A stretch of DNA of 64,000 nt from Nitrospinales bacterium (lineage in GTDB: Bacteria; Nitrospinota; Nitrospinia; Nitrospinales; VA-1). The stretch is taken from assembly GCA_965262115.1 (NCBI GenBank), contig OZ253496.1:1440001-1504000 (forward strand). Direction: 5' to 3'. Position numbers and translations under genes: made by a program. Below, one piece after another: positions 32,247 through 46,915 of this stretch. A model generated the notes under the pieces. The model worked only from the letters and a program-made list of their open reading frames with translations. It was not told the DNA's origin and did no database searches. How positions within the stretch are numbered: the first letter of the stretch is position 1; the number at the start of each line of letters is the position of its first letter.

Positions 32247-33529
32247 TGCTCGATTTAAAAATTATTCGCGAAAATCCTGATGCAGTGAAAACCCGTCTCA
32301 AACGTCGGGGCGGTGACTTCAAGGAACTGGATGAATTGCTCAAGCCCGAAGAAGACCGACGGTTGGGACTTCAGGAATCGGAATTGCTGAAAAATAAAAA
32401 AAAGAAACTTTCGGCAGAGGTCGGGCAGCTCAAACAAAATGGCCAGGACGCTTCGGAGCTTATGGAAGAGGTCAAAGTCATTAACAGTTCCATAAAAGAA
32501 CTGGACGATAAAATTCAAACCCTGGAACAACAGGTGCAAGAGAAACTGCTTGGCATCCCCAACACTCCTGATGACTCCATTCCTGATGGTGCCGATGAAA
32601 GCGCCAACCGAAAGGTGCGCGATTGGGGAACGAAGCCGGAACTTTCATTCAAACCAAAAAATCATGTGGAAATCGGCGAACAGCTCGGCCTGATCGATTT
32701 AAAAAGAGCCGCAAAAATTTCCGGAGCCCGGTTCGCGGTATACAGAGGACAAGGAGCAGGACTGTTGCGTGGTTTGATCAATTTTATGATCGATGTGCAA
32801 ACCCGGGAAAACGGTTATGAGGAATTGTATCCACCCTTCCTGGTCAATAAGGAGAGCATACAGGGCACCGGGCAATTGCCCAAATTTGAGGAGGAGTTAT
32901 TCGCCACCCGCGACGACCCCTTTTACCTCATCCCCACCGCCGAAGTTCCTGTTACGAACTTTCATCGTGATGAAATTCTGGGAGAGGAGTCGTTGCCCAT
33001 CTGTTATGCCGCTTACACCTCTTGTTTCAGGAGAGAGGCCGGGTCCTATGGCAAAGACACGCAGGGATTGATTAGGCAGCACCAGTTCGACAAAGTAGAG
33101 CTGGTCAAATTTAGCCGACCGGAGGATTCACCCGCAGAGCTTGAGACTTTGGTCGAGAATGCAGAAGCCATCCTTAAAAAACTTGACTTGCATTACCGGG
33201 TGATGGAGTTATGTGCCGGTGACTTGGGTTTCTCTGCAGCTAAAACTTATGATCTGGAAGTGTGGCTTCCCAGTCAGGATACATATCGGGAAATTTCGTC
33301 CTGCAGTAATTTTACTGATTATCAGGCTCGGCGGGCCCGGATCCGCTGTAAAAAACGCACGGGTGGTAAACCGGAGTTTGTCCACACCTTGAACGGTTCA
33401 GGCCTGGCTGCAGGCAGATTGTTTGTGGCCCTGCTGGAAAACTATCAGCAGGAAGACGGAACGGTTGTGGTGCCGGAAGTGTTGCGCCCCTATTTGCACG
33501 GGCAGGAAGTTTTAGCAGGGCATCCATAA
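32246..33529 (+). CDS. serS: Seryl-tRNA synthetase
   Basis: PTAEVP, FRREAG, EISSCSN, TLNGSG. Confidence 0.98.
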   Translation: MLDLKIIRENPDAVKTRLKRRGGDFKELDELLKPEEDRRLGLQESELLKNKKKKLSAEVGQLKQNGQDASELMEEVKVINSSIKELDDKIQTLEQQVQEKLLGIPNTPDDSIPDGADESANRKVRDWGTKPELSFKPKNHVEIGEQLGLIDLKRAAKISGARFAVYRGQGAGLLRGLINFMIDVQTRENGYEELYPPFLVNKESIQGTGQLPKFEEELFATRDDPFYLIPTAEVPVTNFHRDEILGEESLPICYAAYTSCFRREAGSYGKDTQGLIRQHQFDKVELVKFSRPEDSPAELETLVENAEAILKKLDLHYRVMELCAGDLGFSAAKTYDLEVWLPSQDTYREISSCSNFTDYQARRARIRCKKRTGGKPEFVHTLNGSGLAAGRLFVALLENYQQEDGTVVVPEVLRPYLHGQEVLAGHP

Positions 33530-33735
33530 ATCTATAATTTTTATTTTGGCCATTCGCGTAACCTTTATTTAAAGGCTGTGTTCGCGCTGATAGTGGATTT
33601 TTATTACGCCATAAAGCATTGACTTAAAGCAGGAAACCGTCCCTTGACATTTTCCCGCAAGTAGATAAATATAAACGGGCTCACAATATTCAGGAGGGAT
33701 GGCCGAGTGGTTTAAGGCGGCGGTCTTGAAAACCG
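33446..33735 (+). repeat. 290-bp direct repeat, copy 1 (serS 3' end + promoter + 5' half of tRNA-Ser)
   Basis: Matches 35758-36047. Confidence 0.92.
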
Positions 33736-33946: not shown

Positions 33947-35023
33947 CTAAGTTTTAATCATTTCATAAAGTTCTACATTGTAATACAAGTGATGCCTTCC
34001 CAACCAAAGATCGCCCATGATTCCAGCTTCTTTGAGTTCGTGCAAATGCTTACTGGCGGTTTGAGGGTGAATTTTCAGGGCCGTGGAAAATTGGGTTGGC
34101 GTTGTAAAAAGAAATGAAAAAACATGACTCACAGTTTCAATCGCATTCATCTTAGAATGATTTTTGCGAATAGTTTCTGTCAACCTTTGATATAAACTCA
34201 TCATTTGAAAAATTTTTGTTTTTGTTTTAATAGCTTCTGACCTGAATCCTTCCAGCACGAATAAAATATATGTTTCCCAATCCCCAGTTTCTGTTACTAG
34301 TTGCAGGGTTTGGTAATATTGAGGACGATTCCTGTTAAAATAAGCGCTGGTATACAAAACTGGAAAATCCAGTAAACCCTCCTGCACTAACTGAAGGACC
34401 AGTAATATTCTTCCCGTCCTTCCGTTTCCATCGCCAAAGGGATGAATTGCCTCAAACTGATAATGGGCGATGGCACACCTGATCAGTGGGTCAATTTTCA
34501 GATTGTCCGACCTGTTGACAAAATGTTCCCAATTTTGTATTAACTCGCCTATCCTTGAAGCTATGGGTGGTGTATATGTAATCTCTCCGGTTTTTTTGTT
34601 TTGTATCCCATTTTGTAGTTTCCTGTAACCAACTTTGGTTTGCATCAGTTTTTCGTGTATTCCCAAAACCAACCTTGTTGATATTGAAAAATCTTTGATA
34701 TGCCGCATTGCCCAATGGATCGCCTCTTGATACCTTAAAGTTTCTCTGTCCGGGCCTTTTTGCTCCGATACCGGGAGAACCTGGCTCTTCAAAACACTTT
34801 CTACAGTCGTATGGATTTCTTCAATACCTGAGCTTTCTACGGATTCCTTAGTCATGGCCACGGACATTAGAACCTTTGCGTCTGGGATACTAGTACAGTA
34901 CCCTTTCAGTTCTCCTATCTCCCGGCTTGCAGAATTAAGTGCCTTTAGTATTGAAGTGGCGTCGAAATCTATCTGGGGTGGCAACAGCTTTAAATTATGT
35001 GGTTGATTGGGATTAAAATTCAT
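33947..35023 (-). CDS. Fic-family protein
   Basis: HPFGDGNGRTGR motif, SSGIEE inhibitory-helix motif, C-terminal HTH. Confidence 0.93.
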   Translation of the reverse strand: MNFNPNQPHNLKLLPPQIDFDATSILKALNSASREIGELKGYCTSIPDAKVLMSVAMTKESVESSGIEEIHTTVESVLKSQVLPVSEQKGPDRETLRYQEAIHWAMRHIKDFSISTRLVLGIHEKLMQTKVGYRKLQNGIQNKKTGEITYTPPIASRIGELIQNWEHFVNRSDNLKIDPLIRCAIAHYQFEAIHPFGDGNGRTGRILLVLQLVQEGLLDFPVLYTSAYFNRNRPQYYQTLQLVTETGDWETYILFVLEGFRSEAIKTKTKIFQMMSLYQRLTETIRKNHSKMNAIETVSHVFSFLFTTPTQFSTALKIHPQTASKHLHELKEAGIMGDLWLGRHHLYYNVELYEMIKT

Positions 35024-35757: not shown

Positions 35758-36047
35758 CAGCAGGAAGACGGAACGGTTGTGGTGCCGGAAGTGTTGCGCC
35801 CCTATTTGCACGGGCAGGAAGTTTTAGCAGGGCATCCATAAATCTATAATTTTTATTTTGGCCATTCGCGTAACCTTTATTTAAAGGCTGTGTTCGCGCT
35901 GATAGTGGATTTTTATTACGCCATAAAGCATTGACTTAAAGCAGGAAACCGTCCCTTGACATTTTCCCGCAAGTAGATAAATATAAACGGGCTCACAATA
36001 TTCAGGAGGGATGGCCGAGTGGTTTAAGGCGGCGGTCTTGAAAACCG
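35758..36047 (+). repeat. 290-bp direct repeat, copy 2
   Basis: Matches 33446-33735 and continues into the complete tRNA. Confidence 0.92.
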
Positions 36048-36218: not shown

Positions 36219-36309
<91 letters not shown>

Positions 36310-36450
36310 CTGCTCGCCGCAGGGGCAGGTTAAGCCGAGAAGAAGTTTTTAGCTAATTTATAAACTTATAGCTAGTGGGCCCCACGCCGAGTGGTTGTTC
36401 GCCAGATCGAGCAATTGCTTATTTTCTGTGGAGGAACTTCACTCGCCGCA
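36310..36450 (+). repeat. ~130-bp tRNA-associated repeat
   Basis: Near-identical copies at 40319-40450 and 40451-40560; partial copy at ~43425-43485. Confidence 0.85.
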
Positions 36451-38028: not shown

Positions 38029-38118
<90 letters not shown>

Positions 38119-38259: not shown

Positions 38260-39003
38260 ATGACCGAACACCCTAACCTGAAAAACGCACCGATAACGGA
38301 AGCGGCCATAGAGTTTAGGTACCAAGATAAAGTAACGGAATTCCAAACCCTTGAGTCTGTTTATTCAGTATTTGAAAAGGACTTCCCCGAAAAGAAAATA
38401 ATTCACCGTGGAAAAGTGGACGTTACTTTTAGGAAAGATAAGCCAGTCGCTTTACAAGCCGAGGATATGGGCCCAGAAGTTATTATTTTTTCTTCTGCTG
38501 ATCAGAAAAAAATAATTCAGTTAAAGAGGGATAGCTTTTCATTCAGCTGGGTAGGGAAATATTCTAAATGGGAAGAATTTTCATCAAAAGCTTTGGAGCT
38601 TTGGAATAAAGCAGATAAAATATTGAAAAGAGAGGCTTTAATTAGAACAGGTTCCAGGTTTATTAATAATCTTAATATTCCCCAAAATGTAGAATTAAAG
38701 GAAATTATAGTAAACTCCCCGACTCTTCCAAAAGGCACAAGTTTTGAGATGGCAGGGTTTTTAAATCAAATGACCCTTTACGATGACAATAATTCTGTTT
38801 CTGCTGTTGTTTGTTTAGGATTAGACCGTAATGAAATAAAAGAACCAAAACTCCCGGTTATCTTTGATATTGATGTGTTTAGCCTGGATATAATTCCAAA
38901 TGAAAATACTAAAATTAATGAAAATTTGAATAAATTAAGAGTTTTTAAAAACTCTATATTTTTTAATTCCCTTACACCAAAAGGAATGGAGCTATATCAA
39001 TGA
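38260..39003 (+). CDS. TIGR04255-like protein
   Basis: L.NAPITEA.IE.R N-terminus; Y..WEEF; R.G.RFIN; FDID; FFN.LT. Confidence 0.8.
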   Translation: MTEHPNLKNAPITEAAIEFRYQDKVTEFQTLESVYSVFEKDFPEKKIIHRGKVDVTFRKDKPVALQAEDMGPEVIIFSSADQKKIIQLKRDSFSFSWVGKYSKWEEFSSKALELWNKADKILKREALIRTGSRFINNLNIPQNVELKEIIVNSPTLPKGTSFEMAGFLNQMTLYDDNNSVSAVVCLGLDRNEIKEPKLPVIFDIDVFSLDIIPNENTKINENLNKLRVFKNSIFFNSLTPKGMELYQ

Positions 39004-39518
39004 TTGCTCTGAAAGAAAGAAGCGTGTTGCCTTTTGAGCCAGACGAAATTAGCTTTTCCCGTTCTTCAGTGGTCACAACTGATTTAGAAAAATTGATTGA
39101 GGATTCTCCCGGCAGGGAGCCAAATTCATTTGCCGTTAGAGAAAAAATTCATTTACTTCTTGAAGAAATTGATCAAGCTTTTGCTGGTTCTCAAGCGGGA
39201 AACGCTGATAACTATGGAGGTAAAGCAGGTAATACTAATTCCTTCAGAAACATTTGTGAATTTATTTATTTAATGTCAGGGCCGTTATTAGAAATAATGC
39301 CGACAGTTCTTTTAGAACCAGATGGTTCTTTTGCCTTAGACTGGGAAAATGTAAACGCAGATACTTCCTTCGCGGTCAGTTTTGGCCCAAATGACGAATT
39401 ATTTTTTGCGGGGCTTTTTTCAAATGGGGCTAAACAAAGAGGTGTTGAAATTTTTAATAGATTTTGGTTTCCCGAGCCCATTAGTAAAAATATATTACGG
39501 GTCATAAAAGGGAAATAA
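39000..39518 (+). CDS. Hypothetical protein, putative antitoxin
   Basis: ATGA overlap with the upstream gene; DNYGG and P...EPDGSFALDW motifs. Confidence 0.7.
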   Translation: MIALKERSVLPFEPDEISFSRSSVVTTDLEKLIEDSPGREPNSFAVREKIHLLLEEIDQAFAGSQAGNADNYGGKAGNTNSFRNICEFIYLMSGPLLEIMPTVLLEPDGSFALDWENVNADTSFAVSFGPNDELFFAGLFSNGAKQRGVEIFNRFWFPEPISKNILRVIKGK

Positions 39519-39519
39519 T

Positions 39520-39924
39520 TTGAATTTAAATTCAGTTTCAGATCAAGAAGAATTGTCTAGATTTCTTTTTAACAATCAGGACTTTACAGAAAGCTCAGGA
39601 AATATCCGATGGACTAGATTGATGCCCATATTTTGTGAGCAACTTGATAGATTGGAAACCTCAATATTCAGGACATCTACTTTGAAGCAAGATAAAGAAA
39701 TATGGGCGTTAGGAGATGCTTTTGCAGGTTTGAAGCGAAAACCCCCAAAAGCTATAGCTGTCCTAACAGCAAAACAAATTAGAAATAAGCAGAGATTGGA
39801 TGTGATACCAGAAACCTCAACACACCCGCTCCATGCGGTGATAGTAAATTGGCCAGAGGCAAAAGATGGACAAATGGAGATTTGTAAAGAATTAAACAAG
39901 GAAGCCAAACTAAGGGTTCGATAA
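39520..39924 (+). CDS. Hypothetical protein, putative ART/RES-like toxin
   Basis: E.LSR...ETSIFR...HA.I.NWP pattern; starts 1 bp after the upstream stop. Confidence 0.65.
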   Translation: MNLNSVSDQEELSRFLFNNQDFTESSGNIRWTRLMPIFCEQLDRLETSIFRTSTLKQDKEIWALGDAFAGLKRKPPKAIAVLTAKQIRNKQRLDVIPETSTHPLHAVIVNWPEAKDGQMEICKELNKEAKLRVR

Positions 39925-40127: not shown

Positions 40128-40218
<91 letters not shown>

Positions 40219-40318
40219 CCATTCGCCATGGAGGCAAATTGATATAGCCTGTTTGGCCGCGAGGGCAATTGGGCACGAGATAAAGATATTGCATTTTATT
40301 AGCGGAGATTCTCCGCCA

Positions 40319-40560
40319 CTGCTCGCCGCAGGGGCAGGTTAAGCCGAGAAGAAGTTTTTGGCTAATTTATAAACTATATAGCTAGTGGGCTCCACGCCGA
40401 GTGGTTGTTCGCCATATCGAGTGATTGCTTATTTTCTGTGGAGGAACTCCGCTCGCCGCAGGGGCAGGTTAAGCCGAGAAGAAGTTTTTAGCTAATTTAT
40501 AAACTATATAGCTAGTGGGCTCCACGCCGAGTGGTTGCTCGCCATATCGAGCAATTGCAT
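40319..40560 (+). repeat. Tandem ~130-bp tRNA-associated repeats (2 copies)
   Basis: GCTCGCCGCAGGGGCAGGTTAAGCCGAG recurs at 40321 and 40451. Confidence 0.85.
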
Positions 40561-40581
40561 ATTGAAAAGTATTGGCAGTTT

Positions 40582-45622: not shown

Positions 45623-45883
45623 CAAAGCCACTTTTCTCTCGACAGGGAGAAGTTCAATTCCCCCATGAGAAGGGGGGTCAGGGGGGTTAAACATTCACTC
45701 AGCTTTGGACTTCATCCCCACCCGATTGCAACCCGTTATAAACCGATACCGCAATAGTTATAAATATAAAACCTACCATATATCGCGTAGTTTGATTAAA
45801 ACCTCCGCCAATGATCCCGGTTGACAACTATATTACCACTAGTTATAATAAACTTTACAACTAGTGGTAATATAGGGTTAAAA

Positions 45884-46915
45884 ATGGTCAAGAACCAGGC
45901 AGAAGAAATTCGCGCCTATCTTTTAGCGAAAATACCGGTGCACCCGAAAAATATCGTCGCCAAAGCCTCGAAGGCTTTTTCGTGCAGCCGCACCACCGTC
46001 CACCGGCACCTGAACCGGCTGCTCCGCAATGGAGCGATCATTAAAACCGGCACCACGAGGCAGGCGCAATACTTTTTAAAGTCGGAAAAAAACAAACAAA
46101 TTCTTGTTCCTCTGGAACCGGGAGTTGAGGAGGATAAAGTCTGGAAAGAAAACTTTTTGCAGGACTTTGAAACGCTCCCCAAAAACGTGCGGAATATTTG
46201 TGAATACGGTTTTCTGGAAATGCTCAACAATGCCATCGACCATTCAGAGGGAACAGGGGTAGTGATAAAAACAGAGTGGGCATCTGACTCAATTATGCTA
46301 GCTATTCGCGATGATGGTGTGGGAATTTTTAGAAAGATCAAGAACGCGCTGAGCTTGGAAGATGAGCGCGAGAGCGCCCTGCATCTCTCAAAGGGAAAGT
46401 TCACCACCGACCCGGAAAACCATACCGGAGAGGGAATATTTTTTTCTTCCCGGGCCTTCGATGAATTTCTTATAACTTCAAGAGGAATGGGTTATGCAAG
46501 AAATAATTGGGATGAAGACTGGTTTGTGGAAACGACGAAGGATGAGAATGTATCCGGAACAGGTTTAATAATGAAAATCGCTCTGGGCTCAAAAAGAAAA
46601 ATGCAGGAAGTTTATGCGCAATTTCAAAATGATGACTCTGACGGAATCCAAAGTTTTGACAAGACCCATATTGCAGTGAAACTGAGCAAATTGGGTGATG
46701 AACGCTATATTTCCCGTTCCCAGGCACGGCGCATCTGTTTGGGACTGGAAAAGTTCAAGCATGTGGATTTAGACTTCACAGGTATTTCTACTGTAGGACA
46801 GGGCTTTGTCGATGAAGTGTTTCGCGTGTTTCAGTCCAAACACCCCCGAATAAAAATTGAACACATAAATGCCAATGACGATGTCCGGTTCATGATTAAA
46901 CATAGCCTGCCTTAA
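45884..46915 (+). CDS. HTH + HATPase + STAS-like (DUF4325) protein
   Basis: EMLNNAIDHS, DDGVG, SRSQARR, GQGFVDEVFRVF. Confidence 0.8.
   Translation: MVKNQAEEIRAYLLAKIPVHPKNIVAKASKAFSCSRTTVHRHLNRLLRNGAIIKTGTTRQAQYFLKSEKNKQILVPLEPGVEEDKVWKENFLQDFETLPKNVRNICEYGFLEMLNNAIDHSEGTGVVIKTEWASDSIMLAIRDDGVGIFRKIKNALSLEDERESALHLSKGKFTTDPENHTGEGIFFSSRAFDEFLITSRGMGYARNNWDEDWFVETTKDENVSGTGLIMKIALGSKRKMQEVYAQFQNDDSDGIQSFDKTHIAVKLSKLGDERYISRSQARRICLGLEKFKHVDLDFTGISTVGQGFVDEVFRVFQSKHPRIKIEHINANDDVRFMIKHSLP

Follow-up and report, generated by a model that had tools for sequence, protein, structure and literature searches.

A TIGR04255 protein ahead of exchangeable gene pairs: a widespread and apparently undescribed family of three-gene cassettes

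Introduction

Toxin-antitoxin-chaperone (TAC) systems, among them CmdTAC, HigBAC and MqsRAC, are encoded in the order that their name gives (bioRxiv 10.1101/2024.02.24.581848 and PMC11618068, in their available text). The accessible portion of the second paper gives CmdT an H-Y-E triad and places the chaperone-addiction tail of CmdA at the C-terminus (PMC11618068). DS-42 (PRO1) was found with DefensePredictor and is listed as validated, with about tenfold protection against phage Bas1 in a single assay row (PMC13092281, available text). Table S4 of that paper, in its available part, predicts at least eight TIGR04255 proteins to be novel defence genes (log-odds 4.7-9.3) and scores them without describing their operons (PMC13092281). 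For PDC-M32, a pair of genes, the literature search returned no experimental paper; the name occurs in one prophage paper, as far as the available text of that paper goes.

The locus described here is a diverged member of a family of three-gene cassettes, and it is the family that is the main object of interest. The family is widespread and apparently undescribed: none of the main texts searched, which cover few subscription papers, names TIGR04255, CHP04255, IPR026349 or DUF7689. No description of the cassette was found in the literature, and the supplement of PMC13069673 contains none of these names.

Results

Organization and setting of the locus

The window, i.e. the whole 64,000-nucleotide stretch of Nitrospinales DNA that was analyzed (assembly GCA_965262115.1, contig OZ253496.1, positions 1,440,001 to 1,504,000), carries three genes on the forward strand between tRNA-Ser(CGA) (38029..38118, +) and tRNA-Ser(GGA) (40128..40218, +). 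Gene 1 (38260..39003, +) encodes a 247-aa TIGR04255-family protein, the constant member of the cassette and likely its regulator or sensor. Gene 2 (39000..39518, +), an open reading frame call of 172 aa, is joined to gene 1 by an ATGA overlap. Gene 3 (39520..39924, +) follows after a gap of 1 bp, starts with TTG and encodes a likely toxin of 134 aa with a predicted ADP-ribosyltransferase (ART) fold. The operon has a GC content of 0.359 (genome, 0.468), a value within the lowest 1% for stretches of its size. Coupling, AT-richness and flanking tRNA genes are thus as a preliminary description, made from the letters alone, had given them.

The same description had taken the site for an island position, and this was confirmed. 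A search of 30 related genomes gave a DNA match to the operon in G073 only, and at four loci of relatives (L193, L194, L198 and L199) the two tRNA-Ser genes lie ~65-105 bp apart with nothing in between; the cassette is therefore an insertion in a variable tRNA cluster. Several same-genus loci have tRNA-Arg followed by tRNA-Ser(GGA), again without the cassette. The position of tRNA-Ser(CGA) varies among close relatives: it lies upstream of the operon in the window and downstream in L005 (5846-5933), and it was not found at L181 or at the corresponding place in the same-genus loci L186, L189-L192, L195 and L196. This tRNA gene is not a fixed border of the cassette. The named loci closest to the window in the GTDB search with gene 1 belong to Nitrospinales metagenome-assembled genomes.

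Comparison of the window with L004 and L005 gave dN/dS values of 0.24-0.34 for all three genes (references: dnaX, 0.06-0.07; a neighbouring lipoprotein gene, 0.25-0.30), so all three are under purifying selection. Both relatives share the loss of 1 bp in an A-run of gene 1, which shifts its frame. In L004 the end of gene 3 has also been lost; in L005 gene 2 has a 23-bp deletion near codon 45, which throws its N-terminus out of frame, and gene 3 is intact. This decay, which amounts to one shared event and two later ones, fits a need to disarm the cassette after the loss of gene 1, as an anecdote.

Scans of the operon for promoters and terminators stayed at chance level. None of the three window proteins matched Pfam, and gene 1 did not match SecB at E 1. 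The preliminary description had put the trio forward as a candidate defence system; PADLOC placed no cassette gene of the window below E 0.01 (best E 0.014).

A conserved cassette with exchangeable gene pairs

Of 250 GTDB loci that a search with gene 1 alone had brought up, the best 80 formed the locus set, and eight of these are near-identical Microcoleus copies. Third genes could be counted where the downstream DNA reached 950 bp or more, which was the case in 69 loci, the other 11 being too short. Three unrelated classes of third gene accounted for 66 of the 69 (38 of the ART-like class of the window, 16 DUF7689 and 12 of a QGD family), and the remaining three loci carry the gene 2 family of the window. 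The gap between genes 1 and 2 was -4 or -1 in 72 of the 75 loci with a called gene 2. The trio thus recurs in other genomes, whereas its absence from them would have spoken against the preliminary description, and it is a real, conserved and co-inherited modular cassette family. By sequence comparison, gene 1 is the constant platform ahead of several unrelated gene-2/gene-3 pairs.

Cassettes of type A alone carry at least 15 phylum labels. TIGR04255 was present in 27 of 351 Pseudomonadota genomes, drawn evenly, and in 14 of 120 genomes of the window's own phylum. Among 29 Pseudomonadota loci that were read, a coupled pair follows in 27, one runs off the contig end and one has none. The third genes of the 27 pairs, assigned to classes partly by eye, were ART-like (12), QGD-related (10), papain-like by motif (four) and HEPN-like (one). 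Third-gene families further include DUF7689 and the QGD...S/NCD family, the latter labelled PemK-like by its motif only; a sequence search of the PDB with the QGD family gave nothing useful. A HEPN-like third gene matched a solved HEPN protein at E 0.0011, and the match of a HicA-like one was weak (E 0.063).

On a quick tree of gene 1, the cassette types cluster (nine changes vs a shuffled mean of 35.1), and the QGD type needs at least three changes. The window's own genome (G000) has three TIGR04255 genes, each ahead of a different pair: besides the window's cassette, contig C1 carries one with a HEPN-like third gene (L001, ~1675726-1677445) and one with a QGD-family third gene (L003/L085, 1813500-1815300). 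The latter looks partly decayed and adjoins transposase genes. A PADLOC-recognized neighbour lies within 4 kb in four of 14 type A loci (53 of 60 long open reading frames scanned, no control), and the window's copy has none adjoining it, so that the link to defence islands is modest. Patchy spread was found together with low GC and the empty site in relatives.

Some cassettes depart from the common layout. In L117, L122, L127 and L130, gene 2 has a helix-turn-helix (HTH) domain and gene 3 encodes a QGD-related protein of 270-280 aa with an extra C-terminal region. In L111-L114, TIGR04255 is followed by a small helical gene and then by a 215-235-aa protein that has conserved H...HLAWH...GLTC motifs and no Pfam match; presumably this protein is permuted papain-like, to judge from its motif only.

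Gene 2 is built of two modules

The N-terminal segment of gene 2 (approximately residues 1-48; 39000..39143, +) is poorly conserved, with a mean top-residue frequency of 0.29 vs 0.46-0.50. The preliminary description had called it probably disordered; what the alignment shows is lower conservation. The remainder (39144..39518, +) belongs to a 'WDGY...PDG...W' family and is likely the antitoxin of gene 3. The preliminary description had named a small 'P..DG.F.LDW' domain here; the motif instead reads P-D-G-x-F-x-L-D-W (G109, W115), and it lies inside a conserved domain of ~120 aa. With the gene 2 profile, a PDB sequence search found nothing but designed helical bundles.

Types A and B share an N-terminal motif (HHalign 86%, E 4.8e-6, ~28 columns), whereas their C-terminal domains and third genes are unrelated (E 0.23 and 0.41; reversed control, E 0.32). 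The shared motif scored above the 95th percentile of shuffles in 16 of 17 type B and 25 of 43 type A sequences. On the gene 1 tree, L083 and L086 branch within type B, and they have a B-type N-terminus (16.5 and 19.9 bits) ahead of a QGD-family pair. The A-B match and these two loci suggest that the N-terminal segment follows gene 1 across swaps and may be a handle for it. Against this, most type C N-termini lack a match to the motif (4 and 3 of 16 above shuffles).

The C-terminal domain, for its part, always changes together with gene 3. Relatives of this domain and of gene 3 also occur without TIGR04255; the same domain then stands behind a different 260-aa region or TPR-like repeats, and the gene that follows the fused domain is small and ART-like. 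Many of these loci lie within type I restriction operons. Such a distribution is likely that of an antitoxin domain and its toxin. In L147, L148 and L150, for instance, a PDC-M32-like pair separates the methylase gene of a type I restriction locus from the specificity gene; L151 has an antitoxin-like domain fused to TPR-like repeats.

The gene 2 of the window fails the shared N-terminal motif (0.3 and -0.9 bits), and by this score it has lost the N-terminal motif of its family. It also lacks the conserved W of WDGY, and the gene 1 of the window is on a long branch of the quick tree. Because of the absent motif score, the lost tryptophan and the long gene 1 branch, the logic of the cassette family may have changed in this copy.

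The model of gene 1 weakly resembles kinase-type domains

Gene 1 was called TIGR04255-like in the preliminary description, and the match proved to be full-length (residues 7-242; 98.5 bits with a cut-off of 30). Across 163 sequences, the conserved polar residues are E14, Y101, R129, R133, N136 (N/D136), D203 and D205; E14, R129, R133, D203 and D205 are kept at 91-95%, the value for E14 being biased by the search pattern, and Y101 at 99%. The structural model (pLDDT 91.6) has two halves, each a sheet and a long helix and each about the size of SecB. No internal duplication was detectable in the sequence (P 0.067).

The top whole-length fold matches of the model were the catalytic domains of ATP:guanido phosphotransferases, among them taurocyamine kinase (Z 8.9, rmsd 4.1, 184 aligned; Z 7.8 in a second search) and the McsB kinase domain (Z 8.4, rmsd 4.7, 178 aligned; Z 7.5). 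TBP-like saddles came next (TBP, Z 6.2-6.8; the rolling-circle initiator RepDE, Z 6.6), and no fold match was strong. Foldseek TM-scores to TBP- and Rep-like folds were at most 0.35, with rmsd above 10. In BFVD, the top match was a 202-aa protein (TM 0.49/0.58), followed by TBP-like proteins. SecB and CmdC were absent among the matches listed in the fold searches, and HHalign of the gene 1 halves with 10 SecB sequences, a shallow profile, gave E 0.44 and 0.2. SecB was not found in the window's own genome, which is 94% complete. A PDB sequence search with gene 1 gave nothing useful, and the ESM Atlas returned only unnamed or TIGR04255 clusters. A role for gene 1 as a chaperone is unproven; its conserved polar residues and the kinase-type fold matches of the model fit an enzyme as well as a binder.

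A natural fusion of genes 1 and 2 was sought and not found, which is weak evidence; the candidate P0050 has a long N-terminus only. The N-terminal region of PDC-M32A was tried as a TIGR04255 domain and did not match, and 0 of 48 gene 1 homologues matched M32A.

Gene 3 is a predicted ART-fold protein

An alignment of 39 gene 3 sequences, taken from neighbourhood homologues, finds 3,336 clusters at 50% identity. Of the 150 best representatives, 148 keep R14, all 150 keep S48 and 149 keep H105, so that the R...S...H pattern noticed in the preliminary description is near-invariant. In the window, the codons are at 39559-39561 (R14), 39658-39663 (T47-S48) and 39832-39834 (H105), all on the + strand.

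A wide fold search with the gene 3 model (pLDDT 92.9) returned ART-fold or NAD-using proteins, classed by the reading of titles, in the top 39 rows and in 44 of 50 overall. The best matches were KptA (Z 7.2, rmsd 3.5, 93 aligned) and the type VI secretion toxin Tse2 (Z 6.9, rmsd 3.5, 108 aligned), with RES and DarT toxins ranking below both. Every ART Z-score was below 8, Foldseek gave no match at E 0.001, and the gene 3 profile found nothing useful among PDB sequences. The ART-like fold that the preliminary description had supposed is thus present in the predicted model, from which gene 3 is predicted to have an ART core. Its R14/T47/S48/H105 have the same order as the Tse2 pocket residues R14/T79/S80/H122 (bioRxiv 10.64898/2026.06.15.732508, available text). 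Tse2 and KptA/Tpt1 differ from gene 3 in that identity is 10-15% and in that gene 3 has no secretion-system context. The target of gene 3 might, as a guess from KptA, Tse2 and CmdT, be RNA or a translation component.

A search of 301 genomes with gene 3 gave a match in six non-seed genomes. Three of these have the full trio, one has a DS-42A-like first gene and two have fragments without partners.

Discussion

Proposed function and alternatives

The reading that we favour, at slightly below an even chance, is that the trio is a three-part toxin-antitoxin switch against phage in which gene 1 binds the N-terminal segment of gene 2. Gene 3 would be a NAD-using toxin with a predicted ART fold, and the C-terminal domain of gene 2 would neutralise it. 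The TIGR04255 protein would bind the N-terminal segment of gene 2 and so keep the antitoxin active; its displacement by a trigger, probably a product of the phage, would then free the toxin during infection. That gene 3 is toxic, that gene 2 neutralises it, that genes 1 and 2 bind, that a trigger causes release and that the system acts against phage are all inferred.

The same switch could instead be set covalently, with gene 1 as a kinase-, ligase- or nucleotidyltransferase-like enzyme whose substrate is gene 3 or the N-terminal segment of gene 2, or which makes or senses a small molecule. This is rather unlikely in our estimate. The whole-length matches to guanido phosphotransferase folds (Z 8.9 and 8.4) and the conservation of E14, R129, R133, D203, D205 and Y101 point towards it, but Z-scores of 7-9 at 7-10% identity may reflect a common sheet arrangement only. 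Guanido kinases have an arginine-rich first strand, which is not what the first strand of gene 1 shows, and proteins like the first gene of DS-42 stand before the same pairs without R129/R133. Taken jointly, binding and covalent modification make a three-part toxin-antitoxin switch controlled through gene 1 probable. A gene 1 that acts as a TBP- or Rep-like nucleic-acid-binding saddle, regulating the operon or sensing foreign DNA or RNA with no binding of the gene 2 tail, is quite unlikely. Such a role would suit the presence of TBP and RepDE among the fold matches, the conserved arginines and the type A operons without an HTH gene; it would not account for the way in which the N-terminal segment of gene 2 stays with gene 1 when pairs are swapped, it sits poorly with the Foldseek scores, and some cassettes have an HTH of their own in gene 2.

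The module might also serve stress responses or its own maintenance rather than defence, or gene 3 might be a non-toxic NAD-using enzyme. That KptA, the best fold match of gene 3, is a non-toxic RNA phosphotransferase would agree with this, as would the 10 of 14 type A loci with no recognised defence neighbour; the anti-phage role of TIGR04255 operons is itself a predicted one. However, unrelated toxin-like folds replace one another in the third position, type I restriction loci have related pairs within them, and the DefensePredictor scores, together with a validated DS-42 of the same layout, argue for defence. We consider a non-defence role unlikely. A true TAC system with a highly diverged tandem SecB as its chaperone is very improbable: the model does have two halves of about SecB size, each with a sheet and a long helix, but Pfam gave no SecB match at E 1, the HHalign values for the halves were E 0.44 and 0.2, and both the order of the genes and the end of the antitoxin that bears the tail are reversed with respect to TACs.

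Relationship to known systems

In TAC systems, ClpXP breaks down the antitoxin if the partner has not bound it. The favoured reading, a toxin-antitoxin switch held by binding of gene 1 to gene 2, resembles TAC systems (CmdTAC, HigBAC, MqsRAC), as their available descriptions go, in the three coupled genes, in a constant partner for several unrelated pairs, in the extra, poorly conserved antitoxin segment and in an ART-fold toxin in one class. It differs from them in the order partner-antitoxin-toxin (TIGR04255, antitoxin-like, toxin-like), in an extra gene 2 segment that is N-terminal where the TAC tail is C-terminal, and in a 247-aa TIGR04255 partner that has no sequence link to SecB. By analogy, the cassette is likely TAC-like in its working without being a TAC, given the lack of a sequence link to SecB and the reversed gene order and tail position. 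The preliminary description had seen a TAC-like module with TIGR04255 in place of SecB; the trio with its constant partner stands, whereas the chaperone role was not supported, the best fold matches being of kinase type. Nor was a close likeness to CmdT supported, because gene 3 has R-S-H in place of the H-Y-[E/D/Q] of a diphtheria-toxin-type ART, as far as the available text describes it.

DS-42 may be a remote relative of the cassette. It has a 238-aa first gene, a 4-bp overlap, a 190-aa second gene with a long variable N-terminus, and an effector; it differs in that the effector is an MBL-fold hydrolase (DS-42C matches MBL models, and the 134-aa gene 3 does not) and in that its gene 2 C-terminal domain is of another kind. 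HHalign of DS-42A with the gene 1 family gave P 0.047 with five sequences and P 0.006 with 10 (probability 6%), against P 0.32 for a reversed control, and DS-42A as a single sequence did not match TIGR04255. Homology of the two is only suggestive. DS-42A relatives do stand ahead of the window's gene-2 and gene-3 families in L203 (E 6e-37 and 9e-30), and one precedes a QGD-type gene in L204. DS-42 itself, at L162 (3177-5577), is part of a lambdoid prophage and has the lysis genes on one side and an antiterminator-like gene on the other, where the gene names come from the reading of translations.

In PDC-M32, the C-terminal region of M32A and M32B match the gene 2 and gene 3 families weakly (E 0.003-0.01), and M32B matches the gene 3 profile at E down to 2e-6. 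The system differs from the cassette in having two genes and no TIGR04255, in a 375-aa M32A (gene 2, 172 aa) whose antitoxin-like domain stands behind a different 260-aa region, and in that the loci read lie inside type I restriction-modification operons.

A broader view, which is speculative and somewhat doubtful, is that TIGR04255 and DS-42A-like proteins form one large superfamily with a guanido-kinase/McsB-like fold, whose members serve as immune sensors or as modifying enzymes. By reading a portable N-terminal antitoxin tag, these proteins would govern six or more unrelated effector types (R-S-H ART, DUF7689, permuted papain-like, PemK-like, HEPN, HicA, MBL), as an independently evolved, mirror-image counterpart of the SecB-based TAC present in several per cent of bacterial genomes. 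On the favoured reading, an orphan family in ~8-12% of the genomes sampled (27/351; 14/120) would gain a function, and the design of a constant sensor, a tagged antitoxin and a swappable toxin would have arisen twice, with different folds and in mirror order. On this reading the cassette is likely a trip-wire against viruses, with a sensor of a new kind in place of the chaperone of known systems. With it come a large R-S-H ART family that is unstudied and several further toxin candidates without annotation, and DS-42, which is validated but unexplained, gains a testable mechanism.

Other features of the window

A 290-bp direct repeat of the 3' end of serS, 100% identical, occurs at 33446-33735 and at 35758-36047, and its second copy runs into tRNA-Ser(TGA). 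The two copies flank a SoFic-like Fic gene (33947-35023, -), which could have inserted at serS recently; otherwise the arrangement is a duplication made in assembly. A second repeat, of 110-150 bp and ~95% identity (36301-36450, 40310-40460 and 40451-40563), is found once after tRNA-Ser(GCT) and twice in tandem after tRNA-Ser(GGA); parts of it recur elsewhere in the genome and in relatives. Further downstream, at 45821-46915 (+), a 364-aa protein combines an HTH-like N-terminus with HATPase and DUF4325 STAS-like domains.
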